A stretch of DNA of 63,435 bases, filler included, from Actinomycetota bacterium (GTDB lineage Bacteria > Actinomycetota > Actinomycetes > JAKEEW01): NCBI GenBank assembly GCA_046725875.1. It is 5 parts of 5 records of this genome, joined end to end, with 100 filler letters (N's around TTAATTAATTAA, not from the genome) between each part and the next. Parts side by side here need not be neighbours in the genome. Positions count along the whole stretch, not along the records: positions 45,480 to 55,512 come from JBKOZJ010000092.1; 4 more parts are not named here. One strand, given 5' to 3'. Positions 45,380 through 49,843 of this stretch are shown here, one piece after another; within the stretch, counting starts at the first letter, position 1, and the number at the start of each line of letters is the position of its first letter. Below the pieces are notes generated by a model, which did not search any database, was not told the origin of the DNA, and saw only the letters and a list, made by a program, of their open reading frames with translations. The translations under genes and the position numbers were made by a program.

Positions 45380-45479
45380 NNNNNNNNNNNNNNNNNNNNN
45401 NNNNNNNNNNNNNNNNNNNNNNNTTAATTAATTAANNNNNNNNNNNNNNNNNNNNNNNNNNNNNNNNNNNNNNNNNNNN
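45380..45479. other. Artificial contig spacer
   Basis: N-run / TTAATTAATTAA / N-run. Confidence 0.99.
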
Positions 45480-46009
45480 CCCGGTTCCATCCTGATCCGG
45501 TTGACACCGTCGTTGTCGTGGACCTCCCAGTCCTTTGCTCCGTACGTCTGGACAACGAATACATCGTGGGTGTCCGAATGCAGCGCAAAGCCTTGCGATC
45601 CGGCTGGGGTGAGATATGCGTTCGCCTGGCAGGCGTGACCCAGGCTCAGCTCGAGGTCTCGGACAATCTCCGTCAGCGGCGGCCAATAGCGCTGCAGCCC
45701 TTGCAGTACGACGCTGGCTCCGCCGTCGAAGAGAGCCAGCACCTTGCGTGGATCGACCAAGCCGGTCAGCGCGACACCGCCCATTGTGCCCGCGCGGGTG
45801 TAGTGCGTTGACGGCAGCACCGATCCGTCCTGGACCATCCGCACCGCCGGCGTGCGCAGCCCGGTCGACGTCAGCAAGTGATCGACGTCGTCGACGTCGA
45901 GCAAGGCGACCAAGTCGGTTGCCTCGGCGCGGTGTACGTGTATGCGACGCGACCACACCTTGTCGACGAAGGTCCGTGCGTCACCCGAGAGGAGGGTCAG
46001 TGCATCCAA
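45480..46009 (-). CDS. JmjC / Cupin_4 (YcfD/NO66-like) 2OG-Fe(II) oxygenase; truncated at contig end
   Basis: GASVVLQGL.R.WPP, QANAYLTP..SQGF..HSD.HDVFV.Q..G.K.W with the HxD iron motif and 2OG-binding Lys. Confidence 0.9.
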
Positions 46010-46043
46010 TGGTCAGAGGCTTCTTGGTCGTCGCGGTTAACCA

Positions 46044-46331
46044 TCAAGCGTCCACGCCATCGGCGTCGCGCTGGTCGGCGTCGGTCGTGTCGGTGCCGTC
46101 CGCATCGGTGGTGTCGGCGTCGTCGGAGTCTGTGGTGTCAGCGCCATCCGCATCGGTCATGTCGGTGCCGTCTGCGTCGGCCGCATCCGTGCCATCGGCG
46201 TCGGTCGAGTCCAGGCCGTCCGCATCCCCGGCGTCAAGGCTGTCGGCATCCCGCCTCCCCGTCGTGTCACTTCCACCGCCGACAGTTTCCATGTCGTCAT
46301 CGCTCAGCGGGCCGTTCGGGTTCACACTCAT
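46044..46331 (-). CDS. 95-aa Asp-rich repeat peptide with double-glycine-type leader (putative RiPP precursor)
   Basis: GGAGG-N5-ATG at 46331; leader ...LSDDDMETVGGG; octapeptide repeats D-A-D-G-x-D-x-x; stop 34 nt upstream of the cupin start, same strand. Confidence 0.8.
   Translation of the reverse strand: MSVNPNGPLSDDDMETVGGGSDTTGRRDADSLDAGDADGLDSTDADGTDAADADGTDMTDADGADTTDSDDADTTDADGTDTTDADQRDADGVDA
46047..46250 (-). repeat. Degenerate 24-bp coding tandem repeat (7 full units + 2 partial)
   Basis: DADSLDAG/DADGLDST/DADGTDAA/DADGTDMT/DADGADTT/DSDDADTT/DADGTDTT/DADQR/DADGVDA. Confidence 0.88.
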
Positions 46332-46646
46332 GGTTGCCTCCAATCAGCGCGGCGGCGGGCCCACCGCTCCAAGACCCAACCCTGTCGGCCCGATCTTCCC
46401 GGCGCAACCCATACCAGGCGCCGTCTCGCGCCATGCTCTTCGGGATTCGGGGGTTGATCGCGACCAATGGCGGGGCCCGGCCAGCCTGGTCGGCGCTCGC
46501 GGAGAACATTGCGATGAGCTCCGCCCGCGGTGTGCCGTGCTGCGGCCGGCTGGCCTCGTGGCCAGTTTCTGGCCTGGCGGGATTGAGGGGGCGATTCGGC
46601 GCGTTGTCGTGACGTAGGCATGAATGCGGTCGTTACTGTTGGAGGG

Positions 46647-47378
46647 ATGTTGGGTCTTCCTGAGCCGATCCAAGGTTGCCTGTTCGATCTCGACGGTGTC
46701 CTTACCCGCACCGCCGACCTTCATCGAGCGGCCTGGAAGGAAGTATTCGACGCTGTGCTCGCCGAGCTAGGCCCGACGCCGATCAAGCCATTCAGCGAGT
46801 CGGACTACCTTGAGTACGTCGACGGCAAGCAGCGCCGCGATGGCGTCCGGGACTTCTTGGCGTCTCGCGGCATCCATCTGCCAGAAGGTGACCCGGACGA
46901 CCCTCCAACGGCGAACACGATCGCTGGAGTGGGGAATCGCAAGAACGAGCTGTTCCTGCAGAAGGTAGAGACCGAGGGCGTTCACGTATACGAGGGGTCG
47001 CGACGTTATCTGGATGCCGTGCGGGAGGCCGGGCTCCTCCGCGCCGTTGTCACGGCCTCAGCCAACGCTAGGGCCGTTCTCGACGGCGCCGATCTGGGCG
47101 GCATGTTTGACGTGATCGTCGACGGCAACGTCGCCGCGGAGCAGCAGCTGGCTGGCAAACCGGCACCCGATACGTACCTGGCCGGGGCGGAGGCACTGGG
47201 TCTCGAACCCCGACAAGCGGCAGTCTTCGAGGACGCGCTGGCCGGTGTCGCGGCTGGGCGGGCCGGTCGGTTCGGCTACGTGGTTGGCGTAGACCGGGCG
47301 AACCAAGCGGCAAAGCTACGTGAACAAGGGGCAAGCGTCGTCGTTGACGACCTTGCCGATCTTTTGGAGCAGGCATGA
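46647..47378 (+). CDS. Beta-phosphoglucomutase family HAD hydrolase
   Basis: LFDLDGVLT, YVDGK.R.DGVR, GKPAPD, FEDA.AGV.AG. Confidence 0.92.
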   Translation: MLGLPEPIQGCLFDLDGVLTRTADLHRAAWKEVFDAVLAELGPTPIKPFSESDYLEYVDGKQRRDGVRDFLASRGIHLPEGDPDDPPTANTIAGVGNRKNELFLQKVETEGVHVYEGSRRYLDAVREAGLLRAVVTASANARAVLDGADLGGMFDVIVDGNVAAEQQLAGKPAPDTYLAGAEALGLEPRQAAVFEDALAGVAAGRAGRFGYVVGVDRANQAAKLREQGASVVVDDLADLLEQA

Positions 47379-49843
47379 CTGTAACCGGCGAGCAGCAGCG
47401 GGAATCCACGGAGGATTCGGCGGATGCTCCGGAGGAGGCCCTTCAGCTGCGCTTCCCGGTCGAGCCCTGGGCGCTGCGGGTCACCGAGCTTGACATGAGC
47501 GCTCTGGCGCAGCTCGAGTCGATCTTCGCGCTCGCGAATGGGCACGTAGGCCTGCGCGGCACTCTCGAAGAGGGCGAGCCGCGCGCCCTCCCCGGCAGCT
47601 ATCTCAACGGCTTCTTCGAGGAGCATCCGCTGCCGCAGGCCGAGTCAGGCTACGGCTACCCGGAGTCTGGCCAGACCGTCGTCAACATCACCGACGGCAA
47701 GCTCATCCGCTTGATCGTCGGCGACTCGCCCTTCGACATGCGCTACGGCCTCACCCGCTCGCACGAGCAGGTCCTGGACTTCCGCTCGGGCCTGCTGTCA
47801 AGACGTACGGAGTGGACCTCGCCGAACGGTCGCTCGGTCCGACTCAGTTCGCAGCGGATGGTGTCGTTTGCCCGCCGCTCCGTCGCGGCAATTGCGTACG
47901 AGGTCGAACCGCTCGATGGCGACCTTTACGTCGCCGTACAGTCCGATCTCCTCGCCAACGAGCCTTCGAACGGCGAGCGCCACGCCGACCCCAGAGCCGC
48001 CGCGGCATTGGCCGCTCCATTGGTGTCGGAGCTCTCTGCCGGTCGGGGGCGGTCCGGTGTCCTCGTTCACAAGACCAAGCGCAGCCTGCTACGGGTCGCC
48101 GTCGGCATGGATCACGTCCTGGAGGTTCCCGGCGAGCTCGACACCTCGCTCGACATCACGGCAGACCTCGCGAGATTCACCATTGCCGCCCGGCTGCCGC
48201 AAGGCACCAAGCTCCGGCTGGTCAAGTTCCTTGCCTACGGTTGGTCACACCGCAGGTCTGCCGCCGCCCTGCGTGACCAGGTCGAGGGAGCGCTCGCCAC
48301 GGCCAAGCTGGCCGGCTGGGACGAGCTCGTCGCCGAGCAGCGGGGGTTCCTGGACGAGTATTGGGCGGGCGCGGATGTAGAGATCGAGGGGGATCCCGAG
48401 CTCCAGCAAGCCGTGCGCTTCGCGCTCTTCCATGTTCTCCAAGCTTCGGCGCGAGCGGAGCAGCGCGCGATCCCGGCGAAGGGCTTGACCGGCCCGGGTT
48501 ACGACGGCCATGCGTTCTGGGATGCCGAGACATTCGTTCTGCCCGTACTCACCTACACGCGGGCGAGCTCGGCGAGGGACGAGTTGCTGTGGCGGTACTC
48601 GATCCTGCCGCTCGCCCAGGATCGAGCCCGAACGCTGGACCAGCGCGGAGCGGCATTCCCGTGGCGGACAATCCGCGGGGAGGAGTGCTCAGGCTATTGG
48701 CCGGCGGGCACCGCCGCCTTCCACATCAACGCTGACATTGCCGACGCGACTGCGAGGTATGTCGCCGCGACCGAGGACTGGGAGTTCGAGCAGGCCGTCG
48801 GGCTCGAGCTGCTCGTCCAGACCGCACGGCTATGGGCGTCGCTCGGCCACTTCGACGGTGCCGGGAATTTCAGGATCCACGGCGTGACCGGCCCGGACGA
48901 GTACACCGCGGTGGTGGACGACAACGTCTACACGAATCTCATGGCGCAGCGGAACTTCCGGGAGGCGGTCGCGGCGTGCAAGCGGTGGCCGGATGTTGCC
49001 GACGCGCTCAACGTCGAAGCCGACGAGCTCGTGCTGTGGACCAGGGCTGCGGACACCGTCTACCTGCCCTATGACGAGCAGTTGCGCGTCCACAGCCAGT
49101 CCAAAGGCTTTACCGAGCACGACGAGTGGGACTTCGAACATACGCCGCCGGAAAACTATCCGCTGCTGCTGCACTACCCGTATTTCGAGCTCTACCGGAA
49201 GCAGGTCATCAAACAGGCCGACCTGGTCCTGGCGATGCACCTGAGGGGCGATGCCTTCACCTCCGATGAGAAGGCGCGCAACTTTGCCTACTACGAGGCG
49301 CGGACGGTCCGGGACTCGTCGCTATCCGCGACTACCCAAGCGGTGCTCGCCGCCGAGATCGGGCATCTCGAGCTTGGGTACGACTACTGGCGGGAGGCAG
49401 CATTCACCGACCTCTACGATCTGTACAAAAACATGGACCTGGGCCTGCACATCGCTGCCCTGGCCGGCGCCTGGATTGCCGCGGTCGCCGGATTCGGTGG
49501 CATGCGCGACTATGACGGTCAGCTGAGCTTTGCGCCGCGGCTGCCGCCCGGGCTGCAGCGGCTGCGCTTTCGGCTCGGCTACCACGGACGCTGCATGGTG
49601 GTGGACGTCGGTCCGCAGTTGGCTACCTACCGGCTGGCCTCCGGTGATCCATTGGAGACTGCGCATTTCGGTGAGCCCATCATCGTTACGGCCGACGAGG
49701 ACACGGTCCGGGACATACCGCCGGCGCCCAAGCTCCCGCCCGTTCACCAGCCGCCCGGGCGTGCGCCGCGGCACCGTCGCCAGCCAGACGCCTCGGCCGA
49801 CCGCCTCGCGGCCCGAAGCGAAACCGAAGCCTCGAAGACCTGA
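47375..49843 (+). CDS. GH65 glycoside phosphorylase (trehalose/maltose/kojibiose type)
   Basis: ESIFALANG.VG.RG, KGLTGPGYDGH.FWD, GPDEY, KQAD, DSSLS. Confidence 0.93.
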   Translation: MTVTGEQQRESTEDSADAPEEALQLRFPVEPWALRVTELDMSALAQLESIFALANGHVGLRGTLEEGEPRALPGSYLNGFFEEHPLPQAESGYGYPESGQTVVNITDGKLIRLIVGDSPFDMRYGLTRSHEQVLDFRSGLLSRRTEWTSPNGRSVRLSSQRMVSFARRSVAAIAYEVEPLDGDLYVAVQSDLLANEPSNGERHADPRAAAALAAPLVSELSAGRGRSGVLVHKTKRSLLRVAVGMDHVLEVPGELDTSLDITADLARFTIAARLPQGTKLRLVKFLAYGWSHRRSAAALRDQVEGALATAKLAGWDELVAEQRGFLDEYWAGADVEIEGDPELQQAVRFALFHVLQASARAEQRAIPAKGLTGPGYDGHAFWDAETFVLPVLTYTRASSARDELLWRYSILPLAQDRARTLDQRGAAFPWRTIRGEECSGYWPAGTAAFHINADIADATARYVAATEDWEFEQAVGLELLVQTARLWASLGHFDGAGNFRIHGVTGPDEYTAVVDDNVYTNLMAQRNFREAVAACKRWPDVADALNVEADELVLWTRAADTVYLPYDEQLRVHSQSKGFTEHDEWDFEHTPPENYPLLLHYPYFELYRKQVIKQADLVLAMHLRGDAFTSDEKARNFAYYEARTVRDSSLSATTQAVLAAEIGHLELGYDYWREAAFTDLYDLYKNMDLGLHIAALAGAWIAAVAGFGGMRDYDGQLSFAPRLPPGLQRLRFRLGYHGRCMVVDVGPQLATYRLASGDPLETAHFGEPIIVTADEDTVRDIPPAPKLPPVHQPPGRAPRHRRQPDASADRLAARSETEASKT

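Follow-up and report, generated by a model that had tools for sequence, protein, structure and literature searches.

The window analyzed here is a 63,435-nucleotide stretch of the genome of an Actinomycetota bacterium (NCBI GenBank assembly GCA_046725875.1; G000 below). It consists of several contigs joined end to end, positions 1–29212, for example, being contig C87. Contig C92 begins with a locus made up of a gene for a small, Asp-rich repeat peptide and, behind it on the same strand, the gene of a JmjC/cupin oxygenase of the 2-oxoglutarate (2OG)-dependent type (Table 1). An earlier note, drawn from the DNA sequence alone, had described this pair as a candidate system resembling peptides synthesized ribosomally and modified post-translationally (RiPPs), in which a double-glycine leader and an acidic repeat core are matched with a dedicated hydroxylase. 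The anatomy it reported can be read directly in the sequence: a 95-residue open reading frame (ORF) with a GGAGG ribosome-binding site, 31 Asp among its 95 residues, an SDTTGRR linker, seven full and two partial octapeptide repeats, a gap of 34 nt to the same-strand JmjC gene, an intact HxD motif (H144-x-D146) in the encoded enzyme, and a contig end that falls inside the cupin.

The window peptide reads MSVNPNGPLSDDDMETVGGG, then SDTTGRR, then the repeats. Within the repeats the pattern D.D..D begins at residues 28, 36, 44, 52, 60, 68, 76 and 84, giving eight in-phase octads, and Tandem Repeats Finder detects periods of 24 and 48 nt in the underlying DNA. An alternative TTG lies four codons upstream of the ATG; it overlaps the GGAGG site and is the less likely start.

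Table 1. Features of the repeat-peptide/oxygenase locus and of its upstream region (positions are those of the window unless stated otherwise)
Feature	Position	Strand	Basis or remark
Peptide gene, 95-aa ORF	46047..46331	minus	ATG at 46329-46331, read from sequence
Shine-Dalgarno site GGAGG, 5 nt ahead of the peptide ATG	46337..46341	minus	sequence
Peptide residues 1-20, leader-like head; PLSDDDMET (family motif P-L-x-D-D-D-[M/I]-x-T), then VGGG	46272..46331	minus	alignment and co-fold of the G005 orthologue
Peptide residues 21-27, SDTTGRR, spacer that joins the head to the repeats	46251..46271	minus	with the post-motif residues forms the family-typical 12-16 residue linker
Peptide residues 28-95, Asp-rich octads DADGxDxx, 7 full and 2 partial; presumed core/substrate region	46047..46250	minus	repeat finder and composition
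TGA stop of the peptide gene	46044..46046	minus	sequence
34-nt spacer, peptide stop to cupin TTG start (46007-46009)	46010..46043	minus	sequence; gap in orthologues mostly -3 to +49 nt
N-terminal 176 codons (TTG start) of the ribosomal-oxygenase-type JmjC/cupin 2OG oxygenase, cut by the contig end	45480..46009	minus	PF08007
H144-S-D146 (HxD), predicted first two iron ligands	45572..45580	minus	invariant in 24-sequence alignment
Contig joint, N runs around TTAATTAATTAA, artificial and not biological	45380..45479		sequence and contig map
Conserved block of ~75 nt (GTGGGTTGCG...GATCGGGCCGACAGGGTTGGG...) before the peptide gene	46345..46420	minus	near-identical among the window, G005 and L028 (a G003-like locus), with partial conservation in L029 and L030
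SigB/SigF-type motif GTTTG..-N-GGGTAC/A	45-90 nt before peptide start		L032, L036, L040, L042, L043, L046 and others

The pairing of peptide and oxygenase recurs throughout the relatives of this genome. Cupin homologues were found in 13 of 40 relatives searched, a tally that includes one genome (G035) on which we do not rely. In each of the 11 published genomes that can be judged, the cupin gene is immediately preceded by an acidic repeat ORF in the same orientation; the twelfth published match, a distant paralogue in G001, lies at a contig end and could not be assessed. We also scanned public species genomes with the full-length orthologue from the relative G005 and took the best 80 of 246 relatives, whose loci come from Nocardioidaceae, Jiangellaceae and Propionibacteriales and include cultured Nocardioides and Marmoricola. 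An Asp-rich ORF ends beside the cupin start in all 76 of these loci that have at least 235 nt of upstream DNA (the remaining four have at most 62 nt). Each of the 76 has the same build, with a short precursor-type gene adjoining the enzyme gene, a conserved head and a repetitive, variable core. The search for small acidic repeat ORFs ahead of cupin homologues that the earlier note had proposed was thus positive at every one of these loci that could be judged. Wherever downstream DNA is present (79 of 79 loci, by tblastn), the cupin gene is followed in the same orientation by a third gene, which encodes a Suc_Fer-like protein of the [2Fe-2S] type and accounts for the further enzymes that the note had supposed to lie out of sight past the contig end. 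We conclude that the peptide and JmjC genes form a dedicated, conserved pair and that their pairing is not due to chance.

High-GC DNA gives many long, spurious ORFs on both strands, and gene callers seldom call the peptide: only 19 database relatives were found, all of them unnamed or "hypothetical" and none with a Pfam domain. A chance open frame across a GC-rich tandem repeat is nevertheless extremely improbable, since the peptide frame, the head motif, the stop position and the Shine-Dalgarno site are all kept across the 76 loci and beyond. Moreover, entropies at codon positions 1, 2 and 3 are 0.57, 0.34 and 0.99 over 64 distinct DNA versions of the nine-codon head motif. The third position varies most, and the peptide protein has therefore been under purifying selection. 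On these two grounds, conservation at 76 of 76 loci and codon-position entropy, we rejected a chance frame. In three loci from metagenome-assembled genomes (L090, L091 and L092) the peptide frame passes from the Asp repeats into a differently composed tail or runs into the cupin. These tails may be frameshifts in the repeat, real or arising from assembly errors, and the three loci were excluded from the composition and linker counts below.

Across the phylum, 58 of 300 other Actinomycetota genomes, sampled evenly, have a full-length cupin match at E ≤1e-15, a tally that includes G126, G306 and G086. We looked at 20 places from the published genomes of this sample, which comprise 18 orthologues (E <1e-80) and two distant paralogues (28–29% identity, E ~1e-55). 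Among the orthologues, 16 have an acidic ORF directly upstream, and 14 have a Suc_Fer match on the same strand. The upstream ORFs are of several types, with DADGTD-like repeats, GADG-like repeats, a 20-residue acidic repeat (L126) or an acidic stretch that is not repetitive (L123). At the two paralogues, both the peptide gene and the third gene are missing; the association is therefore the mark of a single clade within the JmjC family.

The third gene is about 300 codons long and often overlaps the stop codon of the cupin gene ahead of it. Its product matches PF06999 (Suc_Fer-like) at 75–76.2 bits against a cut-off of 34.9. G000 has a single Suc_Fer-like gene, which encodes a 297-residue protein 72% identical to that of G005 and sits at the very end of contig C38. 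There, the last 923 nt (L130, 1207–2129) begin with the last ten cupin codons (IREGLLEVER-stop), and the TTG start of the Suc_Fer-like gene overlaps the cupin TGA. A protein search of G000 for the missing cupin half found only residues 1–176, and the ten terminal codons were seen by reading the C38 end. Because the cupin C terminus and the Suc_Fer-like gene end contig C38, C92 and C38 are neighbors across a gap of ~570 nt (~190 codons). The cassette is therefore complete in the organism and merely split by the assembly gap between these two contigs. Farther along C38, an MFS_1 gene (L131, 5765–6907) follows the Suc_Fer-like gene in the same orientation after 773 nt, with a gene for an AAA_16/TPR regulator beyond it; conservation of these two genes does not extend to the closest relatives, G005 and G003.

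An AlphaFold2 (AF2) model of the third protein has a predicted local distance difference test score (pLDDT) of 92.9. Its central domain resembles the Aquifex [2Fe-2S] ferredoxin Fd4, with a template modeling score of 0.71 by target (TMt), a Foldseek E value of 1.6e-3 (no hit reaches 1e-3) and a profile E value of 4e-4; additional domains are present at both the N and the C terminus. Twenty-one aligned sequences share the invariant residues C132-x8-C141 and H165-x3-D169, together with C6, H137, D138, C140 and C278. The CX8C element is thus present, and the canonical HX3H is replaced by HX3D in 21 of 21 sequences, so the metal site may differ from that of the related ferredoxins Apd1 and Aim32.

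The peptides consist of a conserved head, a linker of nearly constant length and a core of variable, acidic repeats. Over 30 aligned sequences the head follows the consensus M-T-T-T-P-x-E-P-L-x-D-D-D-M-E-T, in which P8, D11 and T16 are invariant and L9 nearly so, bearing out the leader-like head that had been noticed in the window peptide; more distant heads follow M-A-L-x-D-D-D-I-T-T. The linker from this motif to the first DxDx has a median length of 13 residues, and 63 of 69 peptides fall within 12–16. Across the family, cores are 97% D/G/T/A/S (D 38%, G 21%, T 17%, A 13%, S 8.5%), and Cys, Trp, Tyr and Phe occur in no peptide. Each peptide carries 16–38 Asp, a net charge of −18 to −32 and, at the median, nine Asp-Gly dipeptides. 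Cores of the GADG type contain hardly any residue other than G, A and D, which leaves Asp as the sole functional side chain shared by every repeat variant.

The double glycine that gave the proposed leader its name fared less well. A GG within six residues past the motif occurs in only 22 of 72 peptides, so the double glycine of the window peptide is a local rather than a family feature. Judged by eye, the window head fits the spacing of a GG leader (L−12, D−8, M−7, V−4, GG), and G000 encodes one C39 ABC transporter as well as the MFS gene downstream of the third gene on C38. These features would suit a classical secreted RiPP, whose GG leader is cut by a C39-peptidase ABC transporter and whose hydroxylated, polyanionic chelator is released outside the cell. 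We consider such a product very unlikely. Apart from the scarcity of GG, no protease, C39 peptidase, exporter or other neighbor beyond the trio was found to be conserved in the 80 loci with a crude, GC3-based ORF caller, a negative that is weak because the caller recovered the Suc_Fer-like gene in 42 loci versus 79 by tblastn (the next commonest neighbors were of an ATPase-regulator type in 22 loci and a 460-residue protein in 13). The only C39 transporter of G000 (PF03412) adjoins LanB and LanC on contig C72, and the MFS neighbor is not found in the closest relatives. The reading with a double glycine and a peptidase-containing ATP-binding transporter (PCAT) was accordingly rejected on the GG count, the lack of a linked C39 transporter in the 80 loci and the placement of the sole C39 transporter of G000 in a lanthipeptide cluster. 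Thus, of the RiPP-like interpretation in the earlier note, the dedicated, conserved pair and the leader-like head are supported, and the GG leader and a linked protease or exporter are not; nor is a use of the genome's own C39 transporter. The C72 cluster itself (L129, 5049–12367) is of class I lanthipeptide type and comprises the C39-peptidase ABC transporter, a 183-residue protein, LanB (PF04738 and PF14028) and LanC (PF05147).

The oxygenase fragment encoded in the window matches PF08007 (JmjC_2) at 44.7 bits, above the cut-off of 22, and is 81% identical to the 375-residue G005 orthologue; full-length orthologues score 64.7–102 bits. H144, D146 and K159 are invariant across an alignment of 24 cupins. 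The third predicted iron ligand, H188 in the orthologues, is nearly invariant and falls beyond the contig end in the window. Compared with solved structures, a profile built from the 24 sequences finds NO66 (E 3.8e-31), MINA53 (1e-24), YxbC (9e-15), a Rhodothermus cupin-4 protein (5e-14) and YcfD (2e-11). The AF2 model of the G005 oxygenase (pLDDT 92.4, predicted template modeling score 0.86) aligns to NO66 in Foldseek with an E value of 9e-24 and template modeling scores by query (TMq) of 0.67–0.69. Since this match runs across ~447 columns, it covers the whole ribosomal oxygenase (ROX) build of JmjC domain, dimerization domain and C-terminal winged helix. By profile and predicted fold, then, the enzyme is a JmjC oxygenase of the ribosomal-oxygenase (NO66/MINA53/YcfD) type. 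Enzymes whose peptides have GADG-type cores (L023, L024, L025 and L026) carry an insert of 24–27 residues past the HxD strand (alignment columns 198–224), which those paired with DADGTD-type cores lack. This hints that enzyme and core repeat type change together and may co-evolve. None of the three proteins, whether peptide, cupin or Suc_Fer-like, has a family in NCBIfam. Elsewhere in G000 there is another, weaker JmjC_2 match (C62, 65012–65230; L002; 22.7 bits, E 1.6e-4).

We co-folded the pair, as the earlier note had suggested, using the G005 oxygenase with the G005 peptide as partner, each with its own alignment, in three runs with three controls. The best control scored 0.00, and the runs themselves reached 0.70, 0.69 and 0.70. 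Of 157 solved complexes 116 attained that mark, against 2 of 215 mismatched pairs, counts that are only rough guides here because custom alignments were used. Contact agreement among the runs was at least 37% and the pLDDT of the partner at least 39. On the peptide side, the confident interface comprises residues 4–11, 13–20 and 22, that is, the conserved head. On the enzyme side, it comprises residues 274–275, 319, 321–328, 330–331, 353–354, 356–358, 360–361, 363–364 and 368. In the AF2 model the C-terminal domain runs from strands at 299–327 to helices at 329–367; in the co-fold, peptide residues 14–17 pair with strand 324–327, and L9 and D11 pack on helix 355–367. The interface holds G321, R323, P328, L353, R363 and E368, six nearly invariant residues of the C-terminal domain. 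This model supports the view that the head motif PLxDDD[M/I]xT may bind as a β-strand on the C-terminal winged helix, much as RiPP leaders bind to RiPP precursor recognition element (RRE) domains.

Taken together, we judge it somewhat better than an even chance that the cassette performs leader-guided, multi-site Asp hydroxylation by a ROX-type JmjC enzyme, yielding a polyanionic micro-protein that binds metal inside the cell, while the Fe-S protein serves as a second enzyme or iron handler. In this scheme the peptide would be the enzyme's own substrate. Its head would dock as a β-strand on the winged helix of the oxygenase, in the manner of RiPP leaders on RRE domains, and the fixed linker of 12–16 residues would feed the Asp-rich repeats into the JmjC active site. 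Several Asp residues, mostly in a D-G context, would be hydroxylated there, most likely at C3. The product would probably be a modified polyanionic micro-protein that binds cations or iron and retains its head. Because no protease or exporter belongs to the unit, it probably stays in the cell. The iron-sulfur partner could carry out a second redox step on hydroxy-Asp or handle iron for the pair.

The same docking model could be read differently. The peptide may be an acidic regulatory or chaperone partner whose head docks on the winged helix and whose tail gates, inhibits or targets the oxygenase, for example as a nucleic-acid mimic or a competitor of a basic substrate, the true substrate being another, perhaps ribosomal, protein. 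The family of the enzyme suits this role, as known ROX substrates are basic ribosomal proteins and known members hydroxylate His or Arg; the co-fold, moreover, places the head only and not the repeats, and we infer rather than observe the modification. We nevertheless hold a partner role to be unlikely, given that a fixed linker of 12–16 residues and strict one-to-one coupling of the genes are what a tethered substrate predicts. The shift of repeat type with enzyme clade, marked by the insert past the HxD strand in GADG-type enzymes, likewise suggests co-evolution with the active site.

The sequence upstream of the peptide gene differs between clades. In the window's clade the gene is preceded by the conserved block of ~75 nt, which may be a promoter/operator or a 5' leader. 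Rfam gave no match on 45480–47000 at E values up to 1, a consensus fold of the block from three sequences showed almost no covariation and no convincing conserved structure, and simple signal scans of 45480–46700 found neither a sigma-70-like promoter nor an intrinsic terminator. Many Nocardioidaceae loci have a two-box motif, GTTT-N13-18-GGGTA; of 70 upstream regions, 13 carry it 68–88 nt ahead of the start codon. The exact pattern occurs only 14 times in 964 kb counted on both strands, these 13 included, and a relaxed form occurs in 35 of 69 regions versus 13 of 9388 background windows. The motif matches Streptomyces SigB-family promoters such as GTTTGC-N14-GGGTAC (PMC8346170), which suggests, from sequence likeness, that the Nocardioidaceae cassettes may be under stress or developmental control. 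The window's own clade lacks the SigB-like motif, which is likewise missing ahead of the window peptide itself, and shares the 75-nt block instead. Beyond this region, a divergent plus-strand pair at 46620–49843 encodes an HAD-family hydrolase (252 residues) and a GH65 glycoside phosphorylase (822 residues), the stop codon of the first gene overlapping the start codon of the second. The two look like a β-phosphoglucomutase/maltose- or trehalose-phosphorylase pair, and they are not conserved beside the cassette elsewhere.

A stress-type promoter motif in many Nocardioidaceae loci would also fit a peptide that acts unmodified, as a micro-protein binding or buffering Ca2+, Fe or Mg2+, or as an iron donor to the two downstream proteins, in which case the linkage would reflect metal delivery. 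The strongly negative charge and abundant Asp of the peptides agree with this view, as does the fact that both downstream proteins are iron proteins. We think it quite unlikely, however, because a buffer needs neither a conserved docking head of 12 residues nor a linker of fixed length, and generic iron donation would not demand a private gene before one oxygenase in every lineage.

Several points weigh against leader-guided Asp hydroxylation and temper our preference for it. Modification of the peptide, catalysis and the target residue are inferred throughout. Known ROX enzymes act on basic ribosomal proteins, unlike the acidic peptide here, and no general electrostatic match between the partners emerged, as the cupins are themselves mildly acidic (pI 5.2–6.7 in 22 of 23 full-length aligned sequences, a tally that sets aside the window's own fragment and the N-terminally cut L024). 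The co-fold is confident for the head only, with a partner pLDDT of ~40, and does not bring the repeats into the active site. Leader-RRE complexes are solved, and the success of the co-fold may partly be a memory of their binding mode. The putative binding domain matches no Pfam family, PqqD/RRE models included: searches with the C-terminal 82–89 residues of four cupins returned only a chance-level VP9 match (E 0.011). The window itself holds 176 enzyme residues, and its binding domain is modeled on that of the 81%-identical orthologue. The third gene is strictly linked, yet 2OG oxygenases need no ferredoxin. Finally, two of the 18 phylum-wide orthologues are without a clear peptide (L114, which is ambiguous at a contig end, and L124, for which none was found), and four of the 18 gave no Suc_Fer match.

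A more far-reaching form of leader-guided hydroxylation is rather unlikely in its full detail, and we put it forward as speculation. Here the cassette would make a new ribosomal product in which a dozen or more Asp residues are converted to β-hydroxy-Asp by a leader-tethered ROX enzyme, and the winged helix of ribosomal oxygenases, long without an explanation, would prove to be a peptide-docking module. The obligate Fe-S partner, whose Cys2-His-Asp site is unusual, would then perform a second redox step on the α-hydroxy-acid side chains, or reduce and release the iron bound by them. What would emerge is a poly-hydroxycarboxylate buffer or store of metal inside the cell, induced by stress through the SigB-type promoter, as a polymeric, encoded counterpart of hydroxy-Asp siderophores.

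A whole ROX clade proves to have its own polyanionic peptide and Fe-S partner, while ROX enzymes have been known only as modifiers of basic ribosomal proteins. Should the peptide be the substrate, it would represent a new substrate class for JmjC enzymes, possibly with multi-site Asp hydroxylation, and the ROX winged helix would gain a concrete role as a leader-docking domain. The cassette would also be a minimal RiPP-like system, without protease or exporter, that escapes current genome-mining rules, its peptide gene being mostly uncalled. The trio lends itself to direct tests, as it consists of three small genes carried by cultured Nocardioides and Marmoricola strains, among them Nocardioides caldifontis YIM 730233 (L045), N. 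bigeumensis JCM 16021 (L079) and Marmoricola sp. URHB0036 (L083).

A literature search found no description of a cassette in which a ROX enzyme is joined by a peptide with an Asp-repeat core and by a Suc_Fer-like protein, with neither protease nor exporter, nor of the repeat strings, although paywalled papers and supplements could still hold one. JmjC or α-ketoglutarate (α-KG) hydroxylases that act on RiPP precursors, some with RRE domains, are already in print. The present analysis adds the controlled co-fold on the winged helix, a linker of fixed length, the finding that GG is not conserved, the HX3D variant of the third protein, the SigB-type motif and the placement of the third gene on C38.

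The enzyme shares with ROX proteins (NO66, MINA53, E. coli YcfD, the Rhodothermus YcfD-like protein and B. subtilis YxbC) the PF08007 domain, the three-domain fold and the HxD...H triad. Unlike them, the present clade has its own polyanionic Asp-rich peptide gene upstream and a strictly linked Fe-S-type gene downstream. The substrates of known members are encoded elsewhere, whereas here the winged helix is predicted to bind the head of a peptide encoded next door.

Among hydroxylases of RiPP precursors, fusions of an RRE to a JmjC domain (PF08007) were noted by Bregman et al. 2025 (PMC12710340), and MppG is a cyanobacterial α-KG hydroxylase with an RRE that acts on the Nif11-leader precursor MppE (bioRxiv 10.64898/2026.10.04.756588). 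As predicted for the cassette described here, MppG joins a His-Asp-His iron hydroxylase domain to a peptide-binding domain of β-sheet and helix, and a stretch of the MppE leader is modeled as a β-strand that extends the sheet. Their leader, however, is a long, folded Nif11 four-helix bundle within a multi-enzyme lanthipeptide cluster, whereas here the head has 12–17 residues, the core is an acidic repeat of 40–90 residues, and no other RiPP enzyme, protease or exporter is present. The C-terminal domain of the present enzymes also lacks a Pfam or RRE sequence match. CzlI of the curacozole cluster, a JmjC-type peptide hydroxylase whose closest structure is YxbC (PMC11575548), is likewise a JmjC-subfamily Fe/2OG enzyme that adjoins its precursor gene and depends on flanking sequence for its action. 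It differs in making a single Phe-to-Tyr change within a cyanobactin-like pathway of many enzymes, with neither a repeat core nor an Fe-S partner.

For the third protein, the family likeness lies with the Apd1/Aim32 ferredoxins, which have the ligand motif CX8C...HX3H (PMC8482512). Like them, it matches PF06999 and has CX8C (C132...C141). It differs in H165-x3-D169 in place of HX3H, in the additional invariant residues C6 and C278 and in the extra terminal domains, and its cluster is predicted. Its role may be illuminated by SmaO and SmaX, where the Fe/2OG enzyme SmaO hydroxylates Asp and a second iron enzyme, SmaX, cleaves the hydroxy-Asp to aminomalonate (PMC12186529). Differences from this system are that SmaX is an HD-domain enzyme, whereas the third protein here is predicted to have a thioredoxin-like ferredoxin fold, and that the present cassette lacks both the genuine GG leader and the linked PCAT that go with SmaA. 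Common to the two are a peptide, a hydroxylase and a second iron protein, and the Asp residues modified by SmaO lie in Gly-rich DG/GD contexts (PMC12186529), comparable to the many Asp-Gly dipeptides of the peptides described here. By analogy, SmaO/SmaX would be the nearest guide to what the iron-sulfur partner does.

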